Of a DNA stretch of 41,972 nt, positions 1 through 30,209 are shown piece by piece. Source of the stretch: Acutalibacteraceae bacterium (GTDB taxonomy: Bacteria; Bacillota; Clostridia; Oscillospirales; Acutalibacteraceae); contig JAZREW010000017.1 of assembly GCA_045661005.1 (NCBI GenBank), positions 1 through 41,972 of the forward strand, read 5' to 3'. The translations under genes were made by a program, and so were the position numbers. Positions within the stretch are counted from its first letter, which is position 1, and each line of letters opens with the position of its first letter. The notes below the pieces were generated by a model. That model had not been told where the DNA came from, ran no database searches, and worked only from the letters and a program-made list of their open reading frames with translations.

Positions 1-2
1 AA

Positions 3-1202
3 ATTTCAGAAAAGAATATAACTGTGTGGATGTCAAGCGGCAGAGACCAGGCAAACATAATGAAACGAATCATAGATTCCGATTTCAAGCTGAAATATGA
101 TGTTTCGGTTGATTTGAAATTGGTTCAAAACGCTTCGGTGCTAAGTGCTTTAATTGCAGGGAAGGGTCCTGATGTGGCATTGGAATTGCTTGCCGCAAAC
201 CCTGTTGATTATGCAGTAAGAAACGCTTTAGTAGATTTAAAGCAATTTAAAAATTATGAAGATATTTCAAATAGATTTTATGACTCGGCAATAGAACCCT
301 TTAGCTTCAACGGCGGGGTTTATGCATTGCCTGAAAAACAGTCCTTCCCAATGCTTTTTTATCGCACAGATGTGCTTGAAGAGCTTAATATTGAAATACC
401 GAAAACCTGGAAAGATGTAGCAATTTGTTTGACAGAGCTTACAAATGCTAATATGGAATTTGGTGTTTCTTGTGCCGATGCCGACAGTACGCTTTCTACA
501 ATGTCAATGTTCCTTTATCAAAACGGCGGTGAGCTTTATGTAGACGGCGGCAGAAAAAGCGGTCTTACAAATGATAGTGCGTTAACTGCATTTAAACAGT
601 TAACCGACCTTTATACAAGCTATAAGCTGCCATACGCATTTAATTCGCTAAACCGTTTCAGAAGCGGTGAAATGCCGTTGGTTATTGCTGATTATTCACT
701 TTACAATCAGTTGTGCATCTCTGCACCCGAAATCAACGGTCTTTGGGGTGTTTCAACGGTGCCGGGAAATATTGATGAAAATGGTAATATTAACCGTTCT
801 GTTGCAGGCACCGTTACAGGTTGTTCCATAGTGTACAACTCTAAAGATAAGGATTCTGCTTGGAAGTTTATTGATTGGTGGACATCTACTGAAACACAGG
901 CAGATTACGGATTGCAGATTGAAAGCTTACTAGGCCAAGCGGCAAGATATCCTACCGCTAATATAGAAGCGTTAAAACTTTTGCCTTGGTCTGACAGCGA
1001 GTTAGCACAGCTTACCGAACAGCAACAGTATGTTAAAGCTGTTCCGCAAGTGCCTGGTAGTTATTTCACTTCACGCCATGTTTACAATGCGCTTAGAAGA
1101 GTATTGACTTACGGTGATGACCCGAGACAAACACTAATAGATTATGCGGATTATATTGACGAAGAAATTAAAACCAAACGTGATGAGTTTGGTTTGGATT
1201 AA
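3..1202 (+). CDS. Extracellular solute-binding protein of a carbohydrate ABC transporter (5' end lies upstream of the window)
   Basis: The reading frame is open from base 3 to the window edge (ISEKNITVWMSSG...), so the GTG at 24 in the ORF track is probably not the true start. It has an aromatic-rich SBP-like body and sits directly upstream of a MalF/MalG-type permease pair. Confidence 0.75.
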   Translation: MSEKNITVWMSSGRDQANIMKRIIDSDFKLKYDVSVDLKLVQNASVLSALIAGKGPDVALELLAANPVDYAVRNALVDLKQFKNYEDISNRFYDSAIEPFSFNGGVYALPEKQSFPMLFYRTDVLEELNIEIPKTWKDVAICLTELTNANMEFGVSCADADSTLSTMSMFLYQNGGELYVDGGRKSGLTNDSALTAFKQLTDLYTSYKLPYAFNSLNRFRSGEMPLVIADYSLYNQLCISAPEINGLWGVSTVPGNIDENGNINRSVAGTVTGCSIVYNSKDKDSAWKFIDWWTSTETQADYGLQIESLLGQAARYPTANIEALKLLPWSDSELAQLTEQQQYVKAVPQVPGSYFTSRHVYNALRRVLTYGDDPRQTLIDYADYIDEEIKTKRDEFGLD

Positions 1203-1212
1203 AGGGGGTTAA

Positions 1213-2124
1213 ATGATGAAAAAGATAGATTTTTCATACACTTGGAGTCAAATGAAAAAGAAAAAAGCCGGTTATGCATTTGTGGCTCCCTTTATGATTT
1301 TGTTTATTATTTTTACAGTAATTCCTGTAGCAATATCAATTTTTTACAGCTTCACATATTATAATGCGTTAGAAGCTCCACGTTTTATCGGACTTGATAA
1401 TTATATGAGATTATTTCTTAAGGACGATGTTTTTATTATTGCAATTAAAAACACTTTGGTTTTTGCGGTAATTACAGGTCCTGTAAGCTATATTATGTGT
1501 TTACTGTTTGCTTGGTTTATTAACGAGCTAAGCCGACCTCTGAGAGTTTTATTCACAATAATTTTCTACGTACCCTCTATTTCGGGCCAGGCTTATACAA
1601 TATTCTCTATAATTTTTAATAGTGACCGTTATGGTCTTATGAACGGACTTTTAATTAAATTGGGCTTTTTAACCGAACCTATAGCATGGTTTCAGGATAC
1701 ACGTTATATGATGGCAATTATTATAGTGGTATCCTTGTGGATGTCGCTGGGTACCAGCTTTTTGTCCTTTATAGCGGGTCTTCAGAGTGTGGACCGTTCT
1801 TTATATGAAGCCGCCGCTGTTGACGGTATTAAAACCCGTTGGCACGAGCTTTGGTATGTAACATTACCCGCTATGAAGCCACAGCTTATGTTTGGTGCGG
1901 TAATGGCTATCACATCTTCCTTTGCGGTAAGCGGTGTTTGCAATACATTGGCAGGCTTCCCGTCTACCGATTATGCGGCGCATACTATCGTGGCTCATTT
2001 GCAGGATTACGGTCAGATAAGATTTGATATGGGCTATGCTTGTGCAATCGCAACATTACTTTTTATTATGATGGTTGGCGCTAACAAGCTGGTTAATATA
2101 TTGCTAAGAAGGGTGGGCGAATAA
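1213..2124 (+). CDS. Carbohydrate ABC transporter permease (MalF/UgpA-like)
   Basis: RBS AAGGGGG lies upstream. There are about 6 hydrophobic segments. The EAA-loop motif YEAAAVDGIKTRWHELWYVTLPAMKP is present. Confidence 0.9.
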   Translation: MMKKIDFSYTWSQMKKKKAGYAFVAPFMILFIIFTVIPVAISIFYSFTYYNALEAPRFIGLDNYMRLFLKDDVFIIAIKNTLVFAVITGPVSYIMCLLFAWFINELSRPLRVLFTIIFYVPSISGQAYTIFSIIFNSDRYGLMNGLLIKLGFLTEPIAWFQDTRYMMAIIIVVSLWMSLGTSFLSFIAGLQSVDRSLYEAAAVDGIKTRWHELWYVTLPAMKPQLMFGAVMAITSSFAVSGVCNTLAGFPSTDYAAHTIVAHLQDYGQIRFDMGYACAIATLLFIMMVGANKLVNILLRRVGE

Positions 2125-2125
2125 T

Positions 2126-2998: not shown

Positions 2999-3009
2999 GG
3001 GGCGTAAAT

Positions 3010-5100
3010 ATGAAAAAGATACTTGTATTTTTATTGATTTTAGTATTAAGCTTTTCTTTTATTTTCCCCGCAAGTGCTAAAAGCTACAGTTCTTATAATT
3101 ATAACTCTAAGGGCGAGGCTATAAAATCACCTCATCCGTACACACCTGTAAAGGAAATAAGCGGAATTGATATTGGTGTAGGCGAGTTTTCAAACCCTTC
3201 GGATATTTATCGTGATTATAACGGCAATATATATATTTGCGATAGCGGTAATAACCGAATTGTAGTGCTTAACAGCGATTTTACCTTTAAACAGGAAATC
3301 ACCGAGATTACTGTTGGTTATTTTACAGAAAAGCTCAATAACCCAAGCGGTGTGTTTGTGGACCCCAATACTAACCTGCTTTATATTGCTGATACCGATA
3401 ACGCAAGAGTTCTGGCTTTGGACGAAACACTTACAACAGTTATACGTGTTGACAGACCGTATCAAAAAGGCGTTGTAGACGATGACTTTATATTTGCGCC
3501 CACTAAGGTAGCGGTTGATAACGGCGGAAGAATATTCGTTGTATCAAAAAATACCTATGAGGGTCTTATGCAGTTTGATTCTAAGGGTGAATTTTTAGGC
3601 TTTGTGGGTGCAAACAAGGTTTCTATTTCACCTATAGAATATTTTTGGAAACGGCTTTCAACAAAGGCGCAATCATCAAAGCTACAGCTTACCTTACCTA
3701 CGGAATTTTCTAACCTTGAAATAGATTCTGACGGATTTATTTACACCACCACAAGCATAATAAGCGAAGACGGTGCTGATATTCTTATAAGAAGACAAAA
3801 TCCATCCGGTGAGGATGTGCTTAAAAAGAGCGAATTTTTATCGATTGCGGGTGATATTGATTATTCGACAGATACCACAAGCACTTCTAAAATAGGTCCT
3901 TCAAGCTTTGTGGATGTTGCGGTTGGCGACCACGGCATATATAGCGCACTTGATACCAAGCGAGGCAGGATTTTCACCTATGATTTCGAGGGTAATCTTT
4001 TATACGTTTTCGGCGGTGACGGAAACAACGGTAACGATTTAGGATGCTTTTTTACCCCAATTGCTATGATTAAAAGCGGTGAAGATTTTGCTGTTCTTGA
4101 TATGTATAAAGCTACAGTAACAATTTTCGCCCCCACAGAATACGGCAAGCTTATAAATGAAGCGGTAGCTTGCAATTATAATGGCGATTATGATGATTCT
4201 GCAAAGATATGGGAAAAGGTAATACGTCTTAATTGCAATTACGAACAAGCGTATACAGGTATGGGTATTTCTCAGTTGCGTTCGGGCAACTACAAAGAAG
4301 CAATGAAAAACTTCAAGCTTGGTGCTAACAAATACTACTATTCAAAAGCCTTTAAAGAGTATAGGCAAGGCTGGTTAGAATCTAACTTTATATGGGTGGT
4401 TTTAATTGTTGTTACCGCCCTTGTGCTACTGTGCGTAGGAATAACATATTCAGAAAAACGCAGAATAGCCGGCAAGCATACGGTTTTAGATAGCAGTATT
4501 AAATATGTTTTTTATTCGGTTTCGCATCCGTTTGACGGATTTTTTGAAATGAAACGCAGAAAAATGGGTAGCCTTAAAATTTCTGCAGTAATTCTGGCTT
4601 TATTAATATTATGCTTTGTTATTAAAAATCAAATGACAGGGTTCCTTATTAATAATACCGATTTATCTGATTTTAATATTTTCAATGAAATAGTAAAGGT
4701 TTTAGGGCCGTTTTTGCTTTTCTGTATTATAAACTGGTGCGTAACAACCCTTATGGACGGTGAGGGCAGGCTTGTAGAAATTATAAACTGTGTTGCTACT
4801 TGTCTTATACCTTTAATAATTTCTATTATTCCGTTAACAATTCTAAGTAATATTATAACAATGGAAGAAAAAGCATTTTATTATGTTTTGTTATCCTTAG
4901 TTATTGCATATTCGCTATTCTTAGCGTTGGTAGGAATAATGGAAACCCACCAATATTCTTTTGGTAAAACATTGCTTTCAATAATTATAACTATTATTGG
5001 AATGGTTATTACAATATTTATAATTTTGCTTTTTGTAAATCTTATAAACACATTGTTCGATTTTTGTGTAAAGATTTATAATGAGGTTGTATTAAGGTAG
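3010..5100 (+). CDS. Secreted NHL-repeat beta-propeller / TPR-like / C-terminal Yip1-type polytopic membrane domain fusion protein
   Basis: Signal peptide MKKILVFLLILVLSFSFIFPASA. NHL-type repeats are present (NPSDIYRDYNGNIYICDSGNNRIVVLN; NNPSGVFVDPNTNLLYIADTDNARVLALD; RIFVVSKNTYEGLMQFD). A TPR-like stretch follows (YEQAYTGMGISQLRSGNYKEAMKNF). The C-terminus has about 5 TM helices after PFDGFFEMKRRK, as in Yip1-domain proteins. Confidence 0.7.
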   Translation: MKKILVFLLILVLSFSFIFPASAKSYSSYNYNSKGEAIKSPHPYTPVKEISGIDIGVGEFSNPSDIYRDYNGNIYICDSGNNRIVVLNSDFTFKQEITEITVGYFTEKLNNPSGVFVDPNTNLLYIADTDNARVLALDETLTTVIRVDRPYQKGVVDDDFIFAPTKVAVDNGGRIFVVSKNTYEGLMQFDSKGEFLGFVGANKVSISPIEYFWKRLSTKAQSSKLQLTLPTEFSNLEIDSDGFIYTTTSIISEDGADILIRRQNPSGEDVLKKSEFLSIAGDIDYSTDTTSTSKIGPSSFVDVAVGDHGIYSALDTKRGRIFTYDFEGNLLYVFGGDGNNGNDLGCFFTPIAMIKSGEDFAVLDMYKATVTIFAPTEYGKLINEAVACNYNGDYDDSAKIWEKVIRLNCNYEQAYTGMGISQLRSGNYKEAMKNFKLGANKYYYSKAFKEYRQGWLESNFIWVVLIVVTALVLLCVGITYSEKRRIAGKHTVLDSSIKYVFYSVSHPFDGFFEMKRRKMGSLKISAVILALLILCFVIKNQMTGFLINNTDLSDFNIFNEIVKVLGPFLLFCIINWCVTTLMDGEGRLVEIINCVATCLIPLIISIIPLTILSNIITMEEKAFYYVLLSLVIAYSLFLALVGIMETHQYSFGKTLLSIIITIIGMVITIFIILLFVNLINTLFDFCVKIYNEVVLR

Positions 5101-5112
5101 GAGGAGAAGATT

Positions 5113-7689
5113 ATGAAGATTAAATGCAAAAAAATCGCAAGTTTTCTCCTTTCTGCGATGTTGATTTTTTCTACAGCTTCGGTAAGCTTTAAAAGCTATG
5201 CCGAAAAAATTGAAGACGTAAAAATATCAGCCGATTACAGTTATAGCGAAGCTGAAAATATAGCTATAGCTAATGGCTTTGCCCCTGTTTTAAACAATCA
5301 GAATTTCACTTTATACTATAAAGCCGAAACATCTGAAATGGCGGTTTACAACCGCAATAATAATGAGGTTTTATATTCTAATCCGCAGGATATACCCGAG
5401 GATGTGACGGGTCTGGCTTCGCATAGATTGAAATCTCAGCTTTACGTTACATACTATGTAAATAATACGCAGGCTAAATATTTTTCATCTTATTATGACT
5501 GTGTTAATTTTAACCAAAACACAGCCGAAATTAAGGACAATACACTTGTTGTTGAATATGTATTCGGTAAGGAAAGCTATTCAAAGGAAATGTTGCCTAT
5601 AGCTATTCCAAAGGATAAATATGAAGAAAAGATTTTGCCAAAGCTTACAGATGCGGACAAGGAAATACTTGAAAACGCATATAAGCTTACCTCTATTAAA
5701 TCTGCAAAGACTGATGTGGCACGCAACAAGCTTATAGAAAGATACAAGAACATAGAAAAAACCGACCTTTATGTGCTTGACAGATATATACCCGATTACG
5801 AGGTAGAGGCGGTTTATAAATCACTTTTCAAGTATTACACCACAGAAGATTTTAAAGAGGATAACGGAGCGGCAGGCGGCACTACTGAGGTGGCGAATGA
5901 TTCTATAACCTTTACGCTTTCGCTTTGTTACAGTTTAAGAGAAAACGGGTTAACCGTTTCGCTGGATTGCTCACAGTTAACGGTTAGCGAAAACGCAGAT
6001 ATAGATTCTGTAGCAATTTTAGAATTTTTTGGTTGCGGCGGAAAAGCGGATTCGGGTTATTCCGTTATTCCTGACGGCAGCGGCGGTGTGATTAATTTTA
6101 ACACCAATAAGCCTTGGGCTAGCGAATATTCTGCCAGAATTTATGGTGACGACGGTGCAATAAGCTACACTAATTCTGTTGAAAACAAGAAAAGTGTGCA
6201 GCTGCCTATGTATGCCATAGCAAAAAACGAAAGCGGAATAATTGCGGTTGCAAGTAAGGGTGCCGGCATATGCAGTATTATTTCTGATATTGCCGATGAT
6301 ATAATACCCTATAATAAAACTGCTTTTTGTGCAAATGTATTCAGCTTTGATAAAATGTATGTTTTAAATCCTGAATATGGCGGCGGTATGTCTGAGGTTT
6401 ATGTGCGTGAGGCTGAGCCGTATTCAGAAAATATTGAAATTAATTATTTCTTTTTAGAAAAGAATAAAAACACATATGCAAATATTGCCGAGTATTACCG
6501 AAATATGCTAATAAAAAATGGCACACTATCGCAAAAGGTCAACGGTGAAACTCCCTTTGTTTTTGAATTGGTTGGTGCGGTTGATGTAAATAAGCATTTT
6601 TTGGGTATTCCTTATAAAGGATATGAGGTTTTAACATCCTTTGAGCAGGCAGAAGAAATAATAGAAGCTTTTTCAGAACAGAAAATTTCCCGAATGAAGG
6701 TAAAGCTTTCAGGTTGGTTTAACGGCGGTTTGCAACAAACCGATATTTCAAAAGTCAACATTTTGTCCTGCTTGGGCGGTAAGAGAAAGCTTACAAAACT
6801 TATGGAAAGCAAAAAGGCAGATGTTTTTCCGCAAATAAACGTTTCAACGGTAAGCAATAAAGCGTTTGACGGTTTTTCTATTAAAAACGAAGCGGCAAGG
6901 CTTACTTACAACGAAACAGCGCTTTTGTATCCGATTAGTCTTTCACGTGGCGATTTTGATTACGAAGAAAAATATAATTATATTTTATCGCCCGCAAAGT
7001 ATTCGGCAAAGGTAAAAAGCTTTAATAAAAAATTCAATTATAAAAATATTGCGTTATCGGATTTAACAACCACGCTAAACAGCGATTTTTCTGCGGATAA
7101 TTATACCAGCAGAATCAAGGCAGAAAATATAACCAAAGATACTTTAACTAAGCTTAAAAAGGGAAGAAGTATATTGGCGTCGGCACCTAATGAGTATGCA
7201 GTAGAGTTTGTAGATGTTGTAACCGATATGCCGCTTGGTACATCGGGCGCTAACATATTTGATTTAGAAATACCGTTTGTTCAGATGGTGTTTAGCGGAT
7301 ACAAGGATATGGCTTGCGAACCGATAAACATTTATGACAACGGGGCTGATTTATTAAAGCTTATGGCTTACGGTACGTTGCCTAATTACACCTTTATGTA
7401 TGCAGAGTCCTCGGCGCTTAAGGATACAGATTATTCAAATTACTATTCCTTGTGCTTTAAGGATTGGCAAGAAGAAGCAATGGAGCTTTACAAAGATTAT
7501 TGTAAGGATATGCAGGCGGTTAGAGGCTGCAGTATAACAGGCTGGGAAATGATTACCGCAAACGTAATAAAAATCAGCTATGAAAACGGTGCCGTTTTTG
7601 TTATTAATCAAGGCGATAATATTTATGAAGACGGTGCGGTTAAGGTAGAAGGTCAAAGTTATAGCTTTTATAAGGGGGGATTGCAATGA
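5113..7689 (+). CDS. Large secreted protein of unknown function (possibly the DUF5696 type that accompanies Yip1 proteins and sugar ABC permeases in Firmicutes)
   Basis: Strong RBS (AGGAGGAG) and signal peptide (MKIKCKKIASFLLSAMLIFSTASVSFKSYA). I see no motif I can tie to a named enzyme family. The DUF5696 suggestion rests only on size and on remembered gene neighbourhood. Confidence 0.45.
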   Translation: MKIKCKKIASFLLSAMLIFSTASVSFKSYAEKIEDVKISADYSYSEAENIAIANGFAPVLNNQNFTLYYKAETSEMAVYNRNNNEVLYSNPQDIPEDVTGLASHRLKSQLYVTYYVNNTQAKYFSSYYDCVNFNQNTAEIKDNTLVVEYVFGKESYSKEMLPIAIPKDKYEEKILPKLTDADKEILENAYKLTSIKSAKTDVARNKLIERYKNIEKTDLYVLDRYIPDYEVEAVYKSLFKYYTTEDFKEDNGAAGGTTEVANDSITFTLSLCYSLRENGLTVSLDCSQLTVSENADIDSVAILEFFGCGGKADSGYSVIPDGSGGVINFNTNKPWASEYSARIYGDDGAISYTNSVENKKSVQLPMYAIAKNESGIIAVASKGAGICSIISDIADDIIPYNKTAFCANVFSFDKMYVLNPEYGGGMSEVYVREAEPYSENIEINYFFLEKNKNTYANIAEYYRNMLIKNGTLSQKVNGETPFVFELVGAVDVNKHFLGIPYKGYEVLTSFEQAEEIIEAFSEQKISRMKVKLSGWFNGGLQQTDISKVNILSCLGGKRKLTKLMESKKADVFPQINVSTVSNKAFDGFSIKNEAARLTYNETALLYPISLSRGDFDYEEKYNYILSPAKYSAKVKSFNKKFNYKNIALSDLTTTLNSDFSADNYTSRIKAENITKDTLTKLKKGRSILASAPNEYAVEFVDVVTDMPLGTSGANIFDLEIPFVQMVFSGYKDMACEPINIYDNGADLLKLMAYGTLPNYTFMYAESSALKDTDYSNYYSLCFKDWQEEAMELYKDYCKDMQAVRGCSITGWEMITANVIKISYENGAVFVINQGDNIYEDGAVKVEGQSYSFYKGGLQ

Positions 7690-8630: not shown

Positions 8631-8640
8631 GAGCGAAAAT

Positions 8641-9591: not shown

Positions 9592-9604
9592 AGGAGAATA
9601 GAAT

Positions 9605-10585: not shown

Positions 10586-10603
10586 GAGAGGAAAAGTGAT
10601 TTT

Positions 10604-11596: not shown

Positions 11597-11746
11597 AAAA
11601 TCACATTTTTTATGCTTAATCGTAAAAAAAGATAGCTAAAGTAAAAATATGATAATAGAAAAAAGCTTTTGTTTGTTTTATAATATAAATGTGAACTTTG
11701 TGTAAATTTTTTAGAAAAAACTAACAATTTTTAGGGAGGTTTTATT

Positions 11747-15514: not shown

Positions 15515-15523
15515 TTTATGCTT

Positions 15524-15549
15524 AAAGCCACTGCCTGAGCAGTGGCTTT
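15524..15549 (+). terminator. Stem-loop downstream of the 11747-15514 gene (candidate intrinsic terminator/processing site)
   Basis: Perfect 11-bp stem AAAGCCACTGC / GCAGTGGCTTT with a CTGA loop, 10 nt after the stop. The T-run (TTTTTTT) lies about 20 nt further downstream, so termination may be partial. Confidence 0.55.
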
Positions 15550-15594
15550 AGGTGCTTATTCAGTTCGATTTTTTTGTGGCAAAGGAGAATATAA

Positions 15595-20298: not shown

Positions 20299-20340
20299 CT
20301 TGTACAAAATGTTTTGACTTTTTTAAAACAGGAGGAAAAA

Positions 20341-21666: not shown

Positions 21667-21698
21667 GGATTTAAATTATATTTAAAGGAGAAAAAATT

Positions 21699-22751
21699 AT
21701 GAAAAAAGTATTTAAGTTGTTTTCGGTGATTTGTGCAATAACACTTGTAATTGCGTGCTTTGCAAGCTCATTTACTGCAAATGCGGCTATTCCTACAAGC
21801 CTTACCTTTGCTCAGGTAAGCAAGGCTCCTGCCATTGATGCTACAATAGACGATGTTTACGGTAATCCGGTTTTTGATTTCCGTGCTACCGATACACCCG
21901 TAGGCGAGTGGAATGTATTCCCAAGAGACAAAGAGCGTATGGATCCTGTAATGGATGCATACAACGCTATGAGAGTGGCAGGTTATGTAGTTTTTGATAA
22001 AGACTATCTTTATATGGCTTATGATGTTCATGATGTAGCACCTAAGGTTGCAGATAACTCATCAAAATTCTATAAATCCACAAACCTTCAGTTAGTTTTC
22101 TTTGTTAATGAAAACTTAGGATACATTACAGCAGCTTACGCCGGCACAAATTCTGTACGTGTATTTAACGACGACGGTAACCGCAGCACCATGTCTATAG
22201 ATAATATAGAGTGCAAGCTTGTTGAAAAATCAAAGACTAACTACATCTACGAAATGCGTATTCCTTGGAGCAATTTTCACGAGGTAGAAACACTTTCTGA
22301 TATTACCGATTTTAAATTTGCTATAACACAGACTTCTATGGGTAGTGCCGGCAAATATAAAAACGATGAGGGTAAGGAAGATACCTATGTTTGCTCGGCT
22401 TTCGGTAAAGCGTATGACCTTAATTACGACTCCAGCTTACCTGTTACCTTACAAAAGTTAGCAGCAGATAAAAAGGAAGAAGATAAGACCGAAGCTAAAC
22501 CTGAAAGCAAGGTAGAAACATCTGCTGATACAGGCGCAGTTGGCGACGGTGTTGAATTTGGTGATTCGGCTGATGATAACACTACAAATTCAAATGAAAC
22601 AGTAGCTAACGACGATACAACCACAACAGGCGCAGATACTACAGAGGAAAAGGATAATACATTAATTATTATTCTGGCTATTGTTGCCGTTGTAGTAGTA
22701 GCAGGCGGTGTTTTAGCAATTGTTTTAATTAACAAAGGCTCAAAAGAATAA
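21699..22751 (+). CDS. Surface protein: CBM9/DOMON-like binding domain, acidic Thr/Asp-rich stalk, C-terminal TM anchor
   Basis: Signal peptide ending in FTANA. The motifs AIDATIDDVYG, GYVVFDKDYLYMAYDVHD and YIYEMRIPWSNF resemble carbohydrate-binding family 9-like domains. A low-complexity D/T/E linker follows. The C-terminal helix LIIILAIVAVVVVAGGVLAIVLI is followed by NKGSKE. Confidence 0.6.
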   Translation: MKKVFKLFSVICAITLVIACFASSFTANAAIPTSLTFAQVSKAPAIDATIDDVYGNPVFDFRATDTPVGEWNVFPRDKERMDPVMDAYNAMRVAGYVVFDKDYLYMAYDVHDVAPKVADNSSKFYKSTNLQLVFFVNENLGYITAAYAGTNSVRVFNDDGNRSTMSIDNIECKLVEKSKTNYIYEMRIPWSNFHEVETLSDITDFKFAITQTSMGSAGKYKNDEGKEDTYVCSAFGKAYDLNYDSSLPVTLQKLAADKKEEDKTEAKPESKVETSADTGAVGDGVEFGDSADDNTTNSNETVANDDTTTTGADTTEEKDNTLIIILAIVAVVVVAGGVLAIVLINKGSKE

Positions 22752-22766
22752 AATTTAAAAAAGCTT

Positions 22767-22793
22767 CCGCCTTCCTTTTAAAAGGAAAGGCGG
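22767..22793 (+). terminator. Imperfect palindromic stem-loop after the 21699-22751 gene
   Basis: CCGCCTTCCTTTT / AAAAGGAAAGGCGG with a one-base bulge. There is no clean T-run on the + strand; the T-run is on the complementary side. It is therefore only a moderate terminator call. Confidence 0.45.
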
Positions 22794-22815
22794 AGGCTGA
22801 TATGAAAATGTTTTG

Positions 22816-22843
22816 TTGACAAAGTATAGTCTAATGTTAAAAT
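22816..22843 (+). promoter_or_regulatory. Sigma-A-type promoter for the two-component genes
   Basis: Consensus -35 TTGACA (22816-22821), a 16-nt spacer ending in TGT (extended -10 TGn), and -10 TAAAAT (22838-22843). Confidence 0.6.
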
Positions 22844-22923
22844 AATAGTAATGATATTAGCTGAATATTTCTTTTCGGTTAATATGATTACTATAATTAT
22901 TAATGTTAAAATTAGGGCTGTGT

Positions 22924-24675
22924 ATGAAAATGTTTAAAATCATTTCAAATATAAAATCAAAGCTAGTGTTTAAAATTACGCTTTTTTTCATTATATGTGT
23001 TTTTGTGCCGTTAATTTCAATGACTGCTTTTGTTTTTGCAGATATTAACAGCAAAAAAATAGCAGAAAAAGAAGATTTGGTAAATGATGTGATTTTGGAC
23101 CTTGAACAAAATTTCGAGAGAGAATTAAACAGATATGACAGTATTATATCCTCTTTAATTAAGAATAAAGCGATTATTGAATATCCGGCAAATATCGAGA
23201 ACGAAAGCTTTAAGGCTTTATCTTATGACCTTGTAAACGAATTTACTACCGGTGAAAATGCAGTTTTTAACTCGGTTTCGTTTTATTATTTCGATAAAAG
23301 AATAGAAAATGTTGATAATATATTCTTTTCTGCGAGCGGTGTAGAGCAGGAAATATGGTACAACTTATTTTTCACATCCGGCAAATATGCTTCTTGGAGT
23401 ATGGATATAGGAAATTCGAAAAAAGGTTCATTATACCGTATATCCAAGCTTTTTAACGGTTCTGAAGAAATAGGCGTTTGTGTGGTTGAGGTTAATATTG
23501 AAAAGATTTTGCTTACGGTTTTGGTAGAACTGCAAAGAGATGCGAATATATTTGCATTTAACGCTCAAAAGGAAGAGTTTAATATTAACAGCAATGCAAA
23601 TAAGGAAATAATAAAAACATTAGAAAACAACGGATTTTTCATGCAATCTAATTTAGACCATAGAGTATATTGTTTTAATGATGGTAAATATATTTATGCT
23701 GTTAAAAATATACCAGAGTACAGTCTTTCAATTGGTTGCTACGCCGTTAAAAATATGAATATTTTTTCTGATTCTTCTTTTATTGTTTTAATGATTGTGT
23801 TTGTAGCACTTACTTTATTTGTTTTTATTTTCTATTATTTTATAGTTTCTATTTTTAAAACCGTTAACAGCGATATTGAAAAAATGAATGAGTGTATAGA
23901 AAATAATTTCACAGGAAGACTTAGCATTAAAAGAACTGATGAAATAGGCAAAATTGAAAAGCAGTTTAACCTTATGCTTGATAAATTAGATGCGTTGGGC
24001 AAAAAGAACATATTGCGTGAGCAATCGCAAAAGCAGGCAGAAATTAAAGCCTTGCAAAACCAAATGAATCCGCATTTTATATATAACATGCTTAACACAT
24101 TTAGAATGAAGCTTGTAATAAACGGAGACCAGCAAACCGCAGAGGAAATAGCGAAATTCGGAAAATTAATCCGCTATAATATGCATACAAGAGAAAACTT
24201 TGTTTCGCTGCAAGAAGAAATAATGCATTTGAATTATTATCTTGATTTACAAAACGAAAGATTTACACCCAAAATAATATACGATGTGCAGATACCTGTA
24301 GGCTACGGTGATACTAAAATACCAAAATTTATTTTACAACCGTTGGCAGAAAACTCTATAAAATACGGCAAAAAGGCGTCAACACCGCTTAAAATTACCG
24401 TAGCTTTTGAAGATATTGATTCTGAATGTTTTTTGATTTCCTTTACCGATAACGGAAAGGGTTGCGAGCAAAGAATGGTTCAGGCGCTTAATTCGCAATT
24501 TTCAACCGGCAGATATATTTACAAAAGCGACACCGAAACTTCAAGCACAATAGGTTTAAAAAACATTAACGAAAGATTGCGTCTTATTTACGGTGAAGAA
24601 TACCACATTACTGTAAACAGCGAGCAGGATAATTTCTTTGAGGTGCTTATACGTTTACCAAATGGCAAAAATTAG
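22924..24675 (+). CDS. Sensor histidine kinase, YesM/LytS-YehU class (TM - ~260-aa extracytoplasmic domain - TM - HAMP - His_kinase - HATPase)
   Basis: Two TM segments. A HAMP-like segment (NFTGRLSIKRTDEIGKIEKQFNLMLDKL). The PF06580-type H-box LQNQMNPHFIYNMLNTF. ATPase motifs LQPLAENSIKYG, DNGKG and GLKNINERLRLIYG. The start could be 22903, 22924 or 22930. Confidence 0.88.
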   Translation: MKMFKIISNIKSKLVFKITLFFIICVFVPLISMTAFVFADINSKKIAEKEDLVNDVILDLEQNFERELNRYDSIISSLIKNKAIIEYPANIENESFKALSYDLVNEFTTGENAVFNSVSFYYFDKRIENVDNIFFSASGVEQEIWYNLFFTSGKYASWSMDIGNSKKGSLYRISKLFNGSEEIGVCVVEVNIEKILLTVLVELQRDANIFAFNAQKEEFNINSNANKEIIKTLENNGFFMQSNLDHRVYCFNDGKYIYAVKNIPEYSLSIGCYAVKNMNIFSDSSFIVLMIVFVALTLFVFIFYYFIVSIFKTVNSDIEKMNECIENNFTGRLSIKRTDEIGKIEKQFNLMLDKLDALGKKNILREQSQKQAEIKALQNQMNPHFIYNMLNTFRMKLVINGDQQTAEEIAKFGKLIRYNMHTRENFVSLQEEIMHLNYYLDLQNERFTPKIIYDVQIPVGYGDTKIPKFILQPLAENSIKYGKKASTPLKITVAFEDIDSECFLISFTDNGKGCEQRMVQALNSQFSTGRYIYKSDTETSSTIGLKNINERLRLIYGEEYHITVNSEQDNFFEVLIRLPNGKN

Positions 24676-24701
24676 ATATTTATATTAAAGGAGGGTTTAT
24701 A

Positions 24702-26117
24702 ATGCATATTTTTATTGTGGACGATGAAGAACTGTCATGTCGTGGTTTGGCATATATGGTGAATTGTATTTTTTCTCAAACTCCGCAAGAAATTCACTGC
24801 TTTACAAGCCCTGTTGAAGCACTTTCTAAAATGGAATTGTTTAATCCTGATGTTATTTTGCTTGATATTACTATGGACGAAATGAGCGGTCTTGAATTTA
24901 TAACAAGAATTGATAAAAAGTTTTCGCCTAAGATTGTAATTATCAGCGGTAATAATGATTACAGTATTGTTAGAGAAAGCTTTAAGCTTAGTGTTGTTGA
25001 CTATTTGTTAAAGCCGATTGAGTTTTGCGAGCTTGAAACAATAATGCTTAAAATATCCGATACAGAAAATTCTGTAAAAGCTCAGGAAACAACCGCCGAT
25101 AATCAGGATGATTATTCGTGGGGATTTGTGGCGGTTTTCAAGAATAGAATAGGGGATGAGCTTACAAATAAAATTATAAATATCCCTAAAATATGCGGTC
25201 TTAAAGAATATGTTTCGGTTTTAACGTATGATGAAGAATATAACTATTCTGTATATATTTTTTCTATGCAAAGCAAAGAAAATTATCCTAACTGCAAAAG
25301 CGCATTAATTGATATTTTTAATGAGCTGGCAAGGTTAACCGGGCAAGCTTTTAAGGGCGCTTATTCAAACTGCGTTAGGGCGGACGAAATAAGCAAGGCT
25401 ATAAAAGAGGCAAAAGATATTTTAAAAAGCCGACTTTATGATAGCTATTCTACTTGTTACGGACCGGAAGAAAAAATTGAAATTGCAGAGATTGAGGATT
25501 CGGATTTTATAATTGACCTAGAGGCACTTACACCGTTTTTGAATACAGACGATGAAAATTCTTATATGTGTTTTGTAGATACTTGGTTTAGCAAGGAAGA
25601 ATTATTGCAACTAAGCTACGAAAATATTAAGGCGAGATATTCGTTGTTTGAAAGTAAGCTTTTAAGAGAAATTAATTCAGATAAAATTAATTTACAAATT
25701 AAAAATTTTGAAGAATTTGATACCGCAGAAGAAATTACAGCTTACGTTAAACGTATGATTTTTGCTGTGCTTGAGTTTTTGAAAAACAATAAATTTGAAG
25801 TTAATATTATGAGCGAAGCCTTTAAGTATATAGAAGAAAATTACAATAAAGATATTAACCTTAGCTTTATGAGTAGCAAGTTTAATTTAAGCTATAGCTA
25901 CTTTAGCAGAATTTTTAAGATGTATGCGGGTGTTTCTTTTACGCAGTATTTGCTTAAAATACGAATGGAAAAGGCGAAGGAATTATTAATGCTTTCGCCA
26001 AATCTTAAAATAAAAGAAGTTGCATTAATGGTGGGTTACGATTACGATAACGTTCAAAATTTCACCAGAGCCTTTAAAAAATATTTTGGCAGATCGCCAC
26101 AGCATTATAAAGGTTAA
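24702..26117 (+). CDS. Response regulator with AraC-type HTH output (YesN-like)
   Basis: REC domain (IFIVDDEE, VILLDITMDEMSG, LLKP), a long middle region, and a C-terminal AraC HTH (SYSYFSRIFKMYAGVSFTQYLLKIRMEKAKELL ... FTRAFKKYFGRSPQHYK). Confidence 0.9.
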   Translation: MHIFIVDDEELSCRGLAYMVNCIFSQTPQEIHCFTSPVEALSKMELFNPDVILLDITMDEMSGLEFITRIDKKFSPKIVIISGNNDYSIVRESFKLSVVDYLLKPIEFCELETIMLKISDTENSVKAQETTADNQDDYSWGFVAVFKNRIGDELTNKIINIPKICGLKEYVSVLTYDEEYNYSVYIFSMQSKENYPNCKSALIDIFNELARLTGQAFKGAYSNCVRADEISKAIKEAKDILKSRLYDSYSTCYGPEEKIEIAEIEDSDFIIDLEALTPFLNTDDENSYMCFVDTWFSKEELLQLSYENIKARYSLFESKLLREINSDKINLQIKNFEEFDTAEEITAYVKRMIFAVLEFLKNNKFEVNIMSEAFKYIEENYNKDINLSFMSSKFNLSYSYFSRIFKMYAGVSFTQYLLKIRMEKAKELLMLSPNLKIKEVALMVGYDYDNVQNFTRAFKKYFGRSPQHYKG

Positions 26118-26136
26118 TTTATAATAAGGAATTGAT

Positions 26137-28446
26137 ATGATGTATAAAAAAATCCCTCTTGAAATTACAACAGATATTTTAGTTATAGGTGCAGGTCTTG
26201 CGGGCGTTTGCGCCGCAGTTAATGCGGCAAGAAACGGTTGCGACGTTGTTTTGCTTGAGCGTTTCAGAACGTTGGGTGGCAACGGCGGTCCAGAGGTTGG
26301 CGTTCATCCATCAGGCGCACATAGATTTCATCCTTTTGCTGCCGAAACAGGATTAATAGAGGAAATGATAGAGGAAGCCGCTTGGCGAGGCGCTAAGACA
26401 TTATCCTACGGAAACCATTACAATATGTCACAAATGTGGGATACCGTGTTAAGCGATACTCTTAAAAAAGCGGGTGTTACAGTTTTAAGATGCAACTATG
26501 CAAAAGAACCTGTGGTTGAAAACGGAAAAATCACAAAGGTTATTGTTGAAGATGTAGCAACCTTTCACACAAGAGTAATTACCGTTAAAACAGCAGTAGT
26601 TGACTCTTCGGGAGACGGTAATATTTCTTTTCTTGCAGGCGATGATTTCAGACTTGGCAGAGAGTCGGTTTCGGAATACGGCGAGCGCTCTGCACCCGAA
26701 AAGGCGGATAATATTACACTTGGCACTAGTCTTGTGGCTTATATAAGAAAAAATGATACAGAGGTTAATTTTACAACACCGCCCGGAACCTCAGCGTATC
26801 ATCCTGGCTATGAGCATACCGATATGCCTGATAATGATGAGCCGGCATTTATATTCCCAACCGAAACCGGCGGCGAAGCAGATGCCGATACTATTGAGGA
26901 CGAGCATGCAATATATGAAACCCTTTTAGACCAGCTTTATTCTTGGTTTGAACACAAGAGAAATAATAGAGAAGACGGCAAATATTGGGAGCTTGTATGG
27001 GTTAGTCCTAGAACGGGTAAGCGAGAAAGCAGACGCTTTAAGGGTCCTTATACTTTAACACAAAACGATGTTGAAGATGGTAAGATTTTTGAAGACGCTA
27101 TTGGTTTTGGCGGTTTTCCCGAGGATTTACACTATCCAAGACCCGAAAATGAAAAGTATATAAAAATCAAGTATATAGCAATTCCGCCGTTATATTCTAT
27201 TCCTTACAGATGTACATATTCAAATAAAATAGAAAATTTATTTTACGCTTCAAGACTTTGCAGCGTAAGCCATTTGGCACACGGCACAGTAAGACTTCAA
27301 CGCACACTTTCAACAATAGGTATGGCAGTTGGTATTGCGGCGGCGCTTTGTAAAAAATATAACTGTTCACCGGCGGATATTTATGAAAAGCATCTTGAAG
27401 AATTGCAACAAGAAATGCTTAAGCAGGATATAACCATAATGGGCAAGGCAAATGCTGATGATTCGGATTTAGCAAAGCAGGCTAAGGTTACGGCAGATAG
27501 CTTTATTGCATACGGTGTTGGCGAAACAGATGATTTTGTTCCACTTGACTGTCCACGTGGTGTAATGCTTTGGGATTGGTGCGACAGAATAGAAAAGTTT
27601 AACTGTTACTTAAAAAACACAAACAATACACCCGTTAATATGAGCGCTAAGGTTAAGGTTTACAGACCTGAGCATAAATATAAGTTAGAAAAAGACCAAT
27701 CGCTTAAATTCAGCTACAGAAAAGGTAAGGGCAACCATGTAGAATGGGGTGTAGACGATTCTGTTACAGCCTTTGAAGAGGTGGCACAGGTTGAGTTCAC
27801 AATACCTGCAAAATTTTGTGGTTGGTATGAAATACCGGTTAATATAGACTTAACACCTAAAAATGAATATGATGATGATGTGCGCTATGTTATAGAATTA
27901 GACAAGGCAGACGGTGTGTATTGGAGCAAAGATAATAATTCGTATGATTATTGCCGCCGTTTTGAGCTTGGTGATAATTCCGATAAATACACTACGTACT
28001 ATGACGCACATAGTTATAATATTGTACCTACACCAAAGTATGCCGAGGCGGAAAATATTATAGACGGTGTAAGCCGCAGATGGTCCACAAACCCTGTTCA
28101 TATGTGGATTTCTAAAGAAGAGCTGCCACAAAGCATAACACTTGATTGGGAAAAGGAAGTTAAATTCAATACAGTTAATATTACCTTTGATACTTTAACT
28201 CATTCTTATGTTAATATGCCGCTGGACTGTGCAAAAAAGGTTTCCGAATTGTTGGTTAAGCGTTATAAGCTTGAAGTGTATTCAAACGGTGAATGGAAAA
28301 CGGTATACGAAAAGGATAATAACTATCATAGATTTAATAGTGTTACTATTCCCGAAACGGTGTCACAAAACTTAAGACTTACAGTATTAGAAACCTGGGG
28401 CACATCGCAGGCCAGAGTTTATGAAATAAGAGTTTATAATCAATAA
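26137..28446 (+). CDS. Cytoplasmic FAD-dependent oxidoreductase (FAD_oxidored/PF12831-like) with C-terminal F5/8-type-C (discoidin/CBM32-like) domain
   Basis: N-terminal dinucleotide fold DILVIGAGLAGVCAAVNAARNGCDVVLLER...GG and no signal peptide. The C-terminus (about 28042-28443) reads NIIDGVSRRWSTNP...SITLDWEKEVKFNTVNITF...YKLEVYSNGEWKTVYE...LRLTVLETWG...RVYEIRVYN, which is typical of discoidin domains. Confidence 0.75.
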   Translation: MMYKKIPLEITTDILVIGAGLAGVCAAVNAARNGCDVVLLERFRTLGGNGGPEVGVHPSGAHRFHPFAAETGLIEEMIEEAAWRGAKTLSYGNHYNMSQMWDTVLSDTLKKAGVTVLRCNYAKEPVVENGKITKVIVEDVATFHTRVITVKTAVVDSSGDGNISFLAGDDFRLGRESVSEYGERSAPEKADNITLGTSLVAYIRKNDTEVNFTTPPGTSAYHPGYEHTDMPDNDEPAFIFPTETGGEADADTIEDEHAIYETLLDQLYSWFEHKRNNREDGKYWELVWVSPRTGKRESRRFKGPYTLTQNDVEDGKIFEDAIGFGGFPEDLHYPRPENEKYIKIKYIAIPPLYSIPYRCTYSNKIENLFYASRLCSVSHLAHGTVRLQRTLSTIGMAVGIAAALCKKYNCSPADIYEKHLEELQQEMLKQDITIMGKANADDSDLAKQAKVTADSFIAYGVGETDDFVPLDCPRGVMLWDWCDRIEKFNCYLKNTNNTPVNMSAKVKVYRPEHKYKLEKDQSLKFSYRKGKGNHVEWGVDDSVTAFEEVAQVEFTIPAKFCGWYEIPVNIDLTPKNEYDDDVRYVIELDKADGVYWSKDNNSYDYCRRFELGDNSDKYTTYYDAHSYNIVPTPKYAEAENIIDGVSRRWSTNPVHMWISKEELPQSITLDWEKEVKFNTVNITFDTLTHSYVNMPLDCAKKVSELLVKRYKLEVYSNGEWKTVYEKDNNYHRFNSVTIPETVSQNLRLTVLETWGTSQARVYEIRVYNQ

Positions 28447-28464
28447 GCAAAACAGGAGTTTAAG

Positions 28465-29316
28465 ATGGACTTTTCTTATGATATAGGATGGTTGCCAAAT
28501 AAATTAGGATTAAATGAAACATTAGCGGCTTGTAAGGCGGCCGGTATTAATACTGTTGCATATAATTTTCAATGCATTGACGGTTTATACGATGTTTTAC
28601 ACCATACAAAGTATATAGAAAACGCCTGTATGGTTAAAAACATTCTTGATTCTTACAATATATCCTGCAATCAAACCTATGCTCCTTTTTCGTTAAAGCT
28701 TTGTGATGAAAGGTTAAACCGATTTGAAGAAAATTATGGCGAGCTTGTAAGGGCGCTCGAATTTTCTGCCAAAATAGGTGCAAATCAAATGGTGGTTTGC
28801 GCTGTACAGGTGCCGAAGGGTATTGACCAAAAGGAAAAGAACTATAAAATTTATAAATCCTTAATACCGTTTTGTGAAAAATTTGGTATACAACTTGCAA
28901 TAAGCTCGGATTTTCCTAAGCATTTTAAAAGCTCGGCGTTAAAAACACATTGGGCTACCGCAGAAGAGTATAGGGATTTTATACTTTCTTTCGGTTCTGA
29001 ATATGTTTGCGCCTGCCTTGATTTGTGCACGTCTTCTGTTTTAAATCTCACACCTTTCGAGTTTATTGATGTTGTGGGAAACAAAATTTTAAAAAGCATA
29101 AATATTAAAGATGCTGAGAAATACAGGGATATACATTTACAGGCGTTTAATGAGCAGTTTGATTTGAAAAAAATAAGGGAAAAGCTTGAAGAGATAAACT
29201 ATAATGGTGACTTCACCTTTGAATGTCCCTCGTTTGTAAAAGGTTATCCAAACGAATTATTACCTGCGTTATTAAAGCTTTTTGCAGATATTGGTTGTTT
29301 TGTTACTAACGGTTAG
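28465..29316 (+). CDS. Xylose-isomerase-like TIM-barrel (sugar phosphate isomerase/epimerase, AP_endonuc_2) family protein, divergent copy lacking the usual metal-ligand residues
   Basis: It aligns along its length with the next gene (CNQTYAPF/CNQTHSPY, IPFCEKFGIQLAISS/LPYCEKLNIKIALET, CACLDLCTSS/AACIDLGHTA, NYNGDFTFEC/GYSGDLTFED). It has S, C and T where the partner has E and H. Confidence 0.65.
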   Translation: MDFSYDIGWLPNKLGLNETLAACKAAGINTVAYNFQCIDGLYDVLHHTKYIENACMVKNILDSYNISCNQTYAPFSLKLCDERLNRFEENYGELVRALEFSAKIGANQMVVCAVQVPKGIDQKEKNYKIYKSLIPFCEKFGIQLAISSDFPKHFKSSALKTHWATAEEYRDFILSFGSEYVCACLDLCTSSVLNLTPFEFIDVVGNKILKSINIKDAEKYRDIHLQAFNEQFDLKKIREKLEEINYNGDFTFECPSFVKGYPNELLPALLKLFADIGCFVTNG

Positions 29317-29327
29317 GGGGAAAACAA

Positions 29328-30209
29328 ATGAAACTTTCTAGTGCGGTTGGTACGCTTTCTTTCAGATTTTCCGAAGAAAAGGTTTTTGAAATGTTTAGCG
29401 AAGCGGGCTTTGATGCGCTTGATATAAGCTTTTTTAACAGGGAAGAGTATGTTGGCGGGTTAGAAAAATATTATCCTTTAGGTGAAGATTACATTTCTAA
29501 AGCGCAAAAGCAGAAAAAGCTATTAGATGAAGCGGGGTTAAGGTGCAATCAAACCCACTCGCCTTACGGTTTGTTGCCTGATGACGAGTTGAACTGTTCT
29601 AATTATCATTTTGCAGAGTTGGTTCGTTCTTTAGAAACCTCGGCAATTTTAGAGGCACCGCATACGGTTATACATCCTGTAAAACCGCAAAATATAGAGG
29701 ATGTGTATAACTGTAATATGCGTATGTTTGAAGCTTTGCTTCCATATTGCGAAAAGCTTAACATTAAAATAGCTTTAGAAACCTGTCATTTGCGTTATAA
29801 TCTAAACGGAAAAAGTGTAGTATATTTTGACAATGCAAAAAAATATTGTGATATTATAAAGGCTGCAAATTCACCGTATATTGCCGCTTGTATAGATTTG
29901 GGTCATACCGCAGGCGGTTTGAGCGACTATCCCGAACTGTTTATAAAGGAAATGGAAAAGGATTTGCTGATAGGTCTTCATGTGCAGGATTGTGATTATA
30001 TGCACGATAACCATACAACACCTTTTTTCCAAAAACTTAATTGGGAGCAGATAATGCAGGCTTTGGCGGAAATTGGCTATAGCGGGGACTTGACCTTTGA
30101 GGATGTTAATATTGATAAGCATTTTCCCGATGAGCTTATTAAAAGTGTAATAAATTATAAGGCAGAGGTTGGCAGGTATCTTATAGAACTATTTAATAAG
30201 CATATTTAA
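29328..30209 (+). CDS. Xylose-isomerase-like TIM-barrel (sugar phosphate isomerase/epimerase) family protein, canonical copy
   Basis: Family-typical motifs are present: NQTHSPY, TVIHPV, IKIALET, ACIDLGHTA, GLHVQD, DLTFED. Confidence 0.75.
   Translation: MKLSSAVGTLSFRFSEEKVFEMFSEAGFDALDISFFNREEYVGGLEKYYPLGEDYISKAQKQKKLLDEAGLRCNQTHSPYGLLPDDELNCSNYHFAELVRSLETSAILEAPHTVIHPVKPQNIEDVYNCNMRMFEALLPYCEKLNIKIALETCHLRYNLNGKSVVYFDNAKKYCDIIKAANSPYIAACIDLGHTAGGLSDYPELFIKEMEKDLLIGLHVQDCDYMHDNHTTPFFQKLNWEQIMQALAEIGYSGDLTFEDVNIDKHFPDELIKSVINYKAEVGRYLIELFNKHI

Follow-up and report, generated by a model that had tools for sequence, protein, structure and literature searches.

Gram-positive polysaccharide utilisation loci (PULs) that combine CUT1-type ATP-binding cassette (ABC) importers with YesM/YesN regulators, such as the aldouronate clusters of Paenibacillus, are the described systems closest to the gene cluster examined here. 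The cluster lies on contig JAZREW010000017.1 of an Acutalibacteraceae bacterium, a member of the gut Clostridia (assembly GCA_045661005.1), and the window that was analysed is this entire contig of 41,972 bp. It consists of 19 open reading frames (ORFs), g1 to g19, all on the + strand and spanning positions 3-30209. With the Gram-positive PULs it shares the one-strand layout, the binding proteins, the MalF/G-type permeases, the lack of an ATPase gene, the pairing of a histidine kinase with an AraC-type response regulator, the surface proteins with multiple carbohydrate-binding modules (CBMs) and the cytoplasmic finishing enzymes. Unlike them, it has no classified glycoside hydrolase (GH), polysaccharide lyase (PL) or carbohydrate esterase (CE) member in Pfam or NCBIfam, and an NHL/Yip1 protein and a DUF5696 protein are embedded between its two permease pairs. 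On balance, we read the region as a Gram-positive PUL composed of three modules, in which the glycan-cleaving enzymes come from two unclassified GH-like families.

An earlier note, made from the letters of the contig alone, had described a one-strand cluster of ~30 kb with short gaps and ATGA or TAA-GTG junctions, and this description holds: 15 of the 18 intergenic gaps measure 32 nucleotides (nt) or less, an ATGA overlap lies at 7686-7689 and a TAA-GTG junction at 18609/18610. Much of its inventory was recovered as well, namely two MalF/MalG permease pairs (BPD_transp_1 matches at 1213-2998 and 7686-9591), a YesM/YesN-type pair, a domain in four copies (connected by BLASTP among g8, g9, g10 and g12), at least nine CBM-like modules, which jackhmmer puts at exactly nine (four in g10 and five in g11), and a flavin adenine dinucleotide (FAD) enzyme with a xylose-isomerase-like pair (PF12831 and two AP_endonuc_2 matches).

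The same note had recognised no known GH, PL or CE family, and the family searches agree: Pfam and NCBIfam gave no GH, PL or CE match to any window protein, even when sub-domains were scanned at E<=10, and no signature carbohydrate-active enzyme (CAZyme) was detected in the cluster by family hidden Markov models at E<=0.01. Nor were several of the proteins placed in known families with a known substrate. The cluster has the transporter genes (SBP_bac_1, four BPD_transp_1 and the binding-protein-like g13) and the regulator (histidine kinase and response regulator) by which a PUL is recognised; the ATPase that belongs to a CUT1-type importer is absent, no ABC_tran match being found by Pfam among the window ORFs. 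The lack of a CAZyme, however, holds at the sequence level only, for the predicted structures reveal glycosidase folds. Of the three catalytic sets that had been left unassigned, two, the DUF5696 protein and the four-copy domain, have predicted folds of glycosidase type.

Predicted folds of the DUF5696 protein and the four-copy barrel

The candidate catalysts are the following (coordinates in the window; aa, amino acids).

g5, 5113-7689, + strand: secreted 858-aa DUF5696 protein (Pfam DUF5696, E 4e-152)
g8, 9605-10585, + strand: cytoplasmic barrel copy 1, with no hydrophobic N-terminus and no Pfam or NCBIfam match
g9, 10604-11596, + strand: cytoplasmic barrel copy 2, 63% identical to g8 (BLASTP E 1e-161)
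g10 aa 801-1094, 14147-15028, + strand: barrel copy 3
g12 aa 189-544, 19174-20241, + strand: barrel copy 4

GH129 and GH101 are families of retaining alpha-glycosidases with similar catalytic domains (PMC8106489). The AlphaFold (AF2) model of g5, with a predicted local distance difference test (pLDDT) value of 87.4, consists of an N-terminal beta-sandwich, a (beta/alpha)8 barrel and a C-terminal beta-sandwich, as in these two families. In a Foldseek search the model matched the GH129 structure 5opq at E 2.8e-27, and TMt values for GH129 were 0.68-0.72 (0.72 for 5wzn); the GH129 structures concerned are the 3,6-anhydro-D-galactosidase (5opq and 8rzk) and the alpha-N-acetylgalactosaminidase NagBb (5wzn). 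The next ranks are taken by GH101 endo-alpha-N-acetylgalactosaminidases (E 1e-14 to 3e-16), followed by GH36, GH31 and GH97. Three Asp residues, each situated after a predicted barrel strand, are conserved among the 37 DUF5696 members compared (D650 in 34, D658 in 35 and D705 in 30).

In sequence the likeness to NagBb, ZgGH129 and GH101 is faint, with identity of ~10%, no Pfam cross-match of g5 to GH129 or GH101, and nothing found by phmmer of g5 against the PDB; the DUF5696 profile reached the GH129 structure 8rzg in the PDB weakly, at E 6.5e-4, over three short, colinear stretches (N-terminus, middle and C-terminus). In addition, g5 differs from these enzymes in an extra ~200-residue N-terminal region and in always lying within a transporter cassette, the neighbouring catabolic genes of which vary by genome. 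Since the three-domain fold is matched without membership in sequence, g5 would represent a glycosidase fold outside GH129 and GH101. As far as the model goes, then, DUF5696 is not enigmatic in kind and can be assigned a GH129/GH101-type glycosidase fold. A literature search for DUF5696 returned no paper.

The four copies of the second family are mutually linked by BLASTP at E 1e-16 to 1e-52. The AlphaFold model of g8 (pLDDT 91.2, predicted template modelling score 0.90) shows the beta/alpha alternation of a triosephosphate isomerase (TIM) barrel, and the first 24 ranks of its Foldseek list against the PDB are all glycoside hydrolases. These comprise GH30 xylanases, the GH18 chitinase ScCTS1, a GH113 mannanase, GH13 fungal amylases, the xylanase 1nof, a GH158 laminarinase, the GH20 enzyme GcnA, a GH53 galactanase and a GH26 mannanase; GH5 cellulases enter from rank 26. 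The profile of the family retrieved 291 relatives at E<=1e-3 from 1.84 billion cluster representatives, a word-indexed search of 5.8 billion proteins yielded 30, and a metagenome scan with the barrel alignment gave one weak locus. None of 79 diverse members matches a Pfam glycosidase, and neither these nor the window copies match GH123_cat (formerly DUF4091), Glyco_hydro_20 or GH18 in Pfam; the profile likewise found no useful relative among PDB sequences. Named members are called "hypothetical" or are titled after their accessory domains, the longer ones bearing CBM_4_9, CBM9, cohesin plus dockerin, Big_6, Ig-like or Flg_new modules, with which extracellular domains active on carbohydrates are commonly combined.

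Examination of the 79 members shows an invariant Glu (E110) immediately after strand 4 (103-109), preceded at position 109 by Asp in 67 members and by Glu in the other 12, whereas the Asn of clan GH-A is absent. T176, D177, Y183, W213 and G255 are also invariant, and D181 occurs in 76 of the 79. Strand 7 (211-214, FWFTPP) is free of carboxylates, and only 51 members conserve E233. Clan GH-A (GH30, GH5, GH26, GH113, GH53, GH158) provides the best structural matches and shares with the barrel family the (beta/alpha)8 fold and the strand-4 Glu, but it has no sequence similarity to the family, and the Asn of its N-E-P motif and its strand-7 Glu nucleophile are both missing here. With the Glu present and these two absent, the hallmarks of the clan are half represented.

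A different likeness lies in the acidic pair itself. GH20 is marked by an adjacent acidic catalytic pair. An adjacent DE motif is also the catalytic signature of substrate-assisted beta-N-acetylgalactosaminidases built on (beta/alpha)8 barrels (PMC11087588). The barrel family shares such a pair (D/E109-E110) with GH123/GH20-type hexosaminidases, GH18 and GH20 structures occur among its fold matches, and GH123 holds the equivalent slot in one related locus, although no member has a Pfam match to any of the three. We regard this resemblance, drawn by analogy, as a lead rather than a test. Taken as a whole, the models argue that the four-copy domain folds as a (beta/alpha)8 barrel of glycoside-hydrolase type and belongs to an unannotated family. 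On an unrelated short contig (L044 1-5348), three barrel paralogues stand in tandem (tblastn 21-27% to g8); their neighbours have no Pfam match, so that the family expands outside the DUF5696 context too.

Modular composition of the cluster and its conservation

Besides g5, the first seven genes encode transport and membrane components.

g1, 3-1202, + strand: solute-binding protein, C-terminal 399 aa (Pfam SBP_bac_1, E 3e-23)
g2 and g3, 1213-2124 and 2126-2998, + strand: first ABC permease pair (Pfam BPD_transp_1)
g4, 3010-5100, + strand: protein with signal peptide, NHL propeller, TPR and C-terminal multi-pass Yip1 membrane domain
g6 and g7, 7686-8630 and 8641-9591, + strand: second, divergent ABC permease pair (BPD_transp_1, E 3e-8 and 3e-9)

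The contig begins inside the large gene g1 and truncates it; the full-length protein would have ~920-930 aa, and its orthologues have 921-931 aa with an N-terminal CBM-like extension. The 5' end of the cluster, together with its promoter and a possible upstream regulator, falls outside the contig. Between the two permease pairs, identity is 25% for g6 with g2 and 21% for g7 with g3 (BLASTP). In g4, Pfam recognises Yip1 (E 1e-14) and NHL (E 3e-12), and hydropathic segments occupy aa 1-25 and 454-690; no relevant paper emerged from a literature search for Yip1 in combination with sugar transporters. In distant cassettes the NHL/TPR and Yip1 parts are separate adjacent genes (L041 7842-9970; L042 7778-10004), unlike the fusion seen in g4. 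Large binding proteins (931-968 aa) with N-terminal CBM6/CBM35/Golvesin_C-like or Ig-like domains occur at L041 2908-5814, L002 3300-6095 and L042 547-5931, two of them standing in tandem in L042.

A genome scan, in which the closer subset of the DUF5696 alignment served as query, returned 31 loci from Clostridia (Acutalibacteraceae, Eubacteriales and Ruminococcaceae-type metagenome-assembled genomes, MAGs) and two Bacilli. The latter are Cohnella sp. (L005) and the cultured Lederbergia graminis KACC 13779 (L006). Homologues of g1, g2, g3, g4, g6 and g7 flank DUF5696 wherever the flank suffices, and the complete neighbourhood is present in 25 of the 33 loci tabulated, on 24 distinct contigs. 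The genes beside it are of different kinds. One cassette adjoins GH10/GH3/GH67/GH43 xylan genes, another precedes NamZ, an NagZ-type GH3, a kinase and a MurQ-like gene (i.e., N-acetylmuramic acid (MurNAc)/peptidoglycan recycling), and a census of 49 flanking ORFs recorded GH43, GH67, GH35, GH27, beta-helix proteins, or housekeeping genes only. The barrel family joins the cassette only in the three closest contigs. The genes g1-g7 are a portable unit of fixed composition with varying cargo genes, and because this cargo differs between genomes, the case for DUF5696 as the substrate-specific catalyst of the present locus is weakened. In L001 a cytoplasmic protein with GH5-like (Cellulase E 1e-6) and GH42M-like parts stands beside the cassette (1122-2960, - strand). 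This 612-aa neighbour was considered as a bridge between the barrel family and GH5 and was rejected, being an unrelated GH5/GH42M-like protein.

The surface proteins are encoded by g10 to g14.

g10, 11747-15514, + strand: secreted protein with four CBM-like modules (aa 62-765), barrel copy 3 and a dockerin-like tail
g10 aa 1200-1211, 15344-15379, + strand: dockerin-like Ca-loop DANGDGLVNIID, a single canonical loop
g11, 15595-18609, + strand: membrane-anchored or secreted protein with five CBM-like modules and no catalytic domain
g12, 18610-20298, + strand: N-terminal transmembrane anchor, prealbumin/CarboxypepD_reg-like domain and barrel copy 4
g13, 20341-21666, + strand: lipoprotein, divergent family-1 solute-binding protein with a lipobox-like ...CTGC
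g14, 21699-22751, + strand: secreted CBM9-like domain, acidic linker and C-terminal transmembrane anchor (aa 316-349)

For CBM_4_9 the matches are weak, at the gathering score or under it: g10 scores 21.8 bits, and g11 reaches 35.8 bits in total without any single domain passing. Certain items of the earlier inventory survive here only in part. Two solute-binding proteins had been counted; g1 is confirmed as one by SBP_bac_1, though as a C-terminal fragment, whereas g13 itself has no Pfam match, its orthologues matching SBP_bac_1 and the protein matching the arabino-oligosaccharide binding protein 6rjy in the PDB at E 1.3e-3. The ORF of g13 opens with TTG at 20314, and its probable start is the ATG at 20341. 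The dockerin-like module retains one canonical Ca-loop, but the second is degenerate, so that the two tandem 22-residue repeats of a type I dockerin are not present, and Pfam Dockerin_1 gave no match in g10 at E<=1. The CBM9-like protein g14 does carry its anchor, but its CBM9_1 match (E 2.8e-4) is weak, at 21.3 bits against a gathering score of 23.4 bits.

The cytoplasmic genes at the end of the cluster are as follows.

g17, 26137-28446, + strand: cytoplasmic PF12831 FAD_oxidored protein (E 2e-71) with a C-terminal F5/8-type-C-like (galactose-binding-like) domain
g18 and g19, 28465-29316 and 29328-30209, + strand: xylose-isomerase-like TIM barrels (Pfam AP_endonuc_2)

All three are cytoplasmic by hydropathy. 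The barrels g18 and g19 are 31% identical to one another (BLASTP); g19 matches MJ1311 (3wqo) in the PDB at E 2.6e-6, and sequence searches of the PDB with g18 gave no useful relative. For g17, only the Rossmann motif was matched in the PDB, and a literature search for PF12831/FAD_oxidored found nothing relevant. The protein has more than 1700 homologues at E<=1e-20, the named ones coming from Treponema, Chloroflexi, Lentisphaerae, Armatimonadetes and Clostridia. The homologue neighbourhoods seen (L037, L039) are all sugar loci, and the family looks like a general cytoplasmic sugar-processing enzyme. Close g17 homologues at L039 5670-12474 and L037 4319-13713 are either flanked by a GH2 and a GH3 gene or preceded directly by a sugar ABC importer and followed by a YesMN-type pair.

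An arrangement comparable to g17-g19 is known from 3-keto-glycoside catabolism (B. thetaiotaomicron BT2156-BT2159; LacABC/ThuAB), in which an oxidoreductase likewise stands beside xylose-isomerase/IolE-like TIM proteins. The window differs in that its flavoprotein belongs to PF12831 and has a galactose-binding-like tail, that no DUF1080 hydrolase is present, that g17-g19 are cytoplasmic and that their association is confined to close relatives. Of the elements expected of such a pathway (a Gfo/Idh/MocA or GMC dehydrogenase plus a cleaving partner), Pfam detected only the xylose-isomerase-like one.

The order g1-g19 is retained in the MAG contig JAZNJD010000016.1, a second Acutalibacteraceae genome, at 54-92% protein identity, a retention that is not due to chance, and g1-g15 are retained in an ENA contig. 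At lower identity (25-59%), g5-g7 and g10-g14 are found in L043 and L045, the latter also having g15/g16; g8 and g9 are missing in both. In L043 the cytoplasmic slot is taken by a GH130 (E 1e-45) together with a PHP protein and a HAD hydrolase; in L045 it holds a GH123 (E 4e-40), a PF12831 flavoprotein of shorter length, a GHL6/fucosidase-like gene and again a PHP protein. A PF12831 enzyme is thus a recurrent partner. The presence of GH130 and GH123 in place of g8/g9 gives a hint that the imported products carry beta-linked N-acetylhexosamine (HexNAc) and/or beta-mannoside bonds. The 30 kb does not form an indivisible whole: it is an assembly of a generic cassette (g1-g7), a barrel-family block (g10-g16) and a cytoplasmic module that varies, consisting here of g8/g9 with the FAD and isomerase-like genes. 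Immediately downstream of its version of the cluster, L043 carries two genes for phage-type integrases (18239-20594), which may be relevant to the mobility of these loci.

Proposed pathway and alternative explanations

The folds of DUF5696 and of the barrel family together suggest that the catalysts are probably glycosidases of unclassified families, as opposed to enzymes of non-glycosidase chemistry. The activities, the substrate and the order of events proposed below are read from gene content, predicted folds, conservation and synteny. Two of the barrel copies have signal or transmembrane segments and CBM arrays, and the other two have neither and adjoin the permeases; the compartments proposed are supported by this topology, taken from hydropathy. 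Outside the cell, g10, with its CBM-like modules and barrel, and the anchored g12 would depolymerise a polymer retained at the surface by g11 and the anchored g14, where the secreted g5 would act as part of the seven-gene capture and import cassette. Oligosaccharides bound by g1 and g13 would then be imported through both permease pairs, energised by an ATPase encoded elsewhere, and would be cut by the cytoplasmic barrels g8 and g9. Subsequently, g17 and the isomerase/eliminase-type g18 and g19 may process an unusual sugar or a resistant linkage via an oxidised intermediate, and g15/g16 would turn the system on. In Firmicutes it is common for ATPases to be encoded elsewhere and shared among importers. 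The substrate possibly contains HexNAc or beta-mannoside. In the reading that we prefer, which is still speculative, the barrels might perform retaining, substrate-assisted cleavage of a beta-linked 2-acetamido sugar by means of the strand-4 Asp/Glu-Glu pair.

A number of observations weigh against this interpretation. The fold matches of g8 are moderate (E from 2e-6, template modelling score ~0.5), and TIM barrels are promiscuous, some non-GH barrels appearing lower in the list. Alignment of the barrel profile by hhalign with GH123, GH5-like and GH10 proteins gave probabilities below 1% (0.2 for the GH123 protein), although the templates were single sequences and the comparison is hence uninformative. 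No activity is known for any member of the barrel family or of DUF5696, and the substrate-assisted idea depends on a motif of two residues and on the replacement of genes in two relatives. In the case of DUF5696, position 705 is Asn in 6 of the 37 members, the varied cargo of the cassette is hard to square with one fixed specificity, and the protein might be a non-catalytic or general component. Finally, the cluster has only one canonical dockerin loop, the window encodes no ABC ATPase, and g18/g19 are absent beside g17 homologues in distant genomes.

One of four other explanations is that the barrels are clan-GH-A-like enzymes acting on a neutral beta-glycan, most plausibly beta-mannan or a beta-mannoside, in a mannan-type locus, with E110 as acid/base and an unusually placed nucleophile such as D181 or D177. 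The GH113 and GH26 beta-mannanases, GH30 and GH5 among the best fold matches, the position of E110 at the end of strand 4 as in a clan-A acid/base, the GH130 (a beta-mannoside phosphorylase family) in the cytoplasmic slot of L043 and the GH5/GH42M-like neighbour in L001 all speak for it. We nevertheless consider it rather unlikely, as the clan-A Asn is replaced by Asp or Glu in 79 of 79 members, strand 7 has no conserved carboxylate (E233 in only 51 of 79), and L045 carries GH123, not GH130. Cleavage could, alternatively, be mainly non-hydrolytic, g17 oxidising a glycoside and g18/g19 eliminating or hydrating it, while the barrels and DUF5696 would have accessory or binding roles. A dehydrogenase with an IolE/LolE-like TIM protein follows the 3-keto-disaccharide logic of BT2156-BT2159 (PMC8121099), the genes g17-g19 are tightly packed and conserved in the closest relative, and the PF12831 enzyme recurs in L045. 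Yet g17 is neither a Gfo/Idh/MocA nor a GMC enzyme, Pfam found no DUF1080 partner, relatives of g17 elsewhere occur without the TIM pair, and the barrels have conserved acidic residues at the barrel top and travel with CBMs. Being cytoplasmic, moreover, g17-g19 would be unable to depolymerise an external polymer, and this explanation appears improbable.

The probability is lower still that the barrel is another type of TIM-barrel hydrolase, e.g., a phosphodiesterase or esterase acting on a surface glycopolymer that bears phosphate or acyl groups, such as one of teichoic-acid-like type. TIM barrels host many chemistries, non-GH barrels are found among the weaker fold matches, and PHP-type phosphoesterase genes occur in the cytoplasmic module of two relatives; on the other hand, glycoside hydrolases fill all of the first 24 ranks of the fold search, the invariant Glu, Asp, Tyr and Trp are typical of sugar sites with no invariant His/metal-type motif, and the fusion partners are CBMs and cellulosomal modules. 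Least probable, by a little, is that the cluster remodels or recycles the wall or exopolysaccharide of its own cell, the cassette being a recycling importer and not a means of nutrient harvest. The DUF5696 cassette that precedes NamZ, the NagZ-type GH3, the kinase and the MurQ-like gene fits such a role, as do several cassettes without any adjacent GH, but the set of nine CBM-like modules, dockerin-like tail, substrate-sensing YesM/YesN-type regulators and cytoplasmic catabolic enzymes is what one expects of a foraging locus, and other cassettes front xylan catabolic genes.

The reading as a three-module PUL with catalysts from two unclassified families can also be extended. Tentatively, and with more doubt than confidence, one may combine three propositions: g1-g7 would be a novel import machine, the barrel a new GH family and PF12831 a new oxidative step. 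If this were true, Gram-positive bacteria would possess in g1-g7 a machine for glycan capture and import that is widely conserved but had gone unrecognised, with DUF5696 and the Yip1 protein as integral parts of a dual ABC importer fronting varied catabolic sets; the four-copy barrel would found a GH family using a strand-4 Asp-Glu pair, and the PF12831 flavoprotein would stand for an oxidative step by which oligosaccharides are broken down in the cytoplasm.

The novelty of the cluster would thus reside in two candidate GH families, a conserved cassette and a flavoprotein family of unassigned reaction. If both families are active glycosidases, they are blind spots in dbCAN-type annotation of gut Clostridia, loci of this kind being presently scored as without degradative capacity. 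Nothing in the searchable literature appears to describe the DUF5696 cassette, which is conserved from Oscillospirales to Bacilli, and the PF12831 family sits in sugar operons of many phyla without an assigned reaction. The soluble 326-aa cytoplasmic copies (g8 and g9) and the cultured carrier Lederbergia graminis KACC 13779 make these proposals readily testable.

Putative transcription signals and neighbouring genes

The two regulatory genes and the signals located in the larger gaps are listed below.

g15, 22903-24675, + strand: YesM-type histidine kinase (Pfam His_kinase, HAMP and HATPase)
g16, 24702-26117, + strand: YesN-type response regulator (Pfam Response_reg and AraC helix-turn-helix)
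11656-11684, + strand: promoter-like site in the 150-nt gap before g10, matching the consensus at 10 of 12 positions
15520-15553, + strand: strong hairpin between g10 and g11 (-27 kcal/mol when 15515-15594 is folded by RNAfold)
22762-22798, + strand: hairpin after g14
22816-22843, + strand: best promoter-like site, TTGACA-16-TAAAAT with TG, in the 150-nt gap ahead of g15
30222-30278, + strand: hairpin with T-run after g19 (RNAfold of 30210-30630)

A simple terminator scan gave nothing convincing, and the strong hairpins after g10, g14 and g19 emerged when the gaps were folded. The hairpin and T-run after g19 are likely a terminator that closes the cluster, and the hairpin between g10 and g11 may act as a partial terminator or stabiliser. 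The promoter-like sites and hairpins in the larger gaps suggest about three or four transcription units (g1-g9, g10, g11-g14 and g15-g19), a division read from sequence signals and compatible with the few long transcripts supposed in the earlier note. An Rfam scan of the window matched no RNA family.

Towards the end of the contig there are ORFs at 40087-40425 (112 aa) and 40577-41944 (455 aa), the latter encoding a protein without a Pfam match. Between these and the cluster, at 30631-39895, lie the genes for the E-like, DUF2764/C-like, A, B, D, I and K subunits of a V/A-type ATPase, arranged as an operon, after which TrkH and TrkA genes come next on the same strand; a strong promoter-like site is located at 30488-30516.

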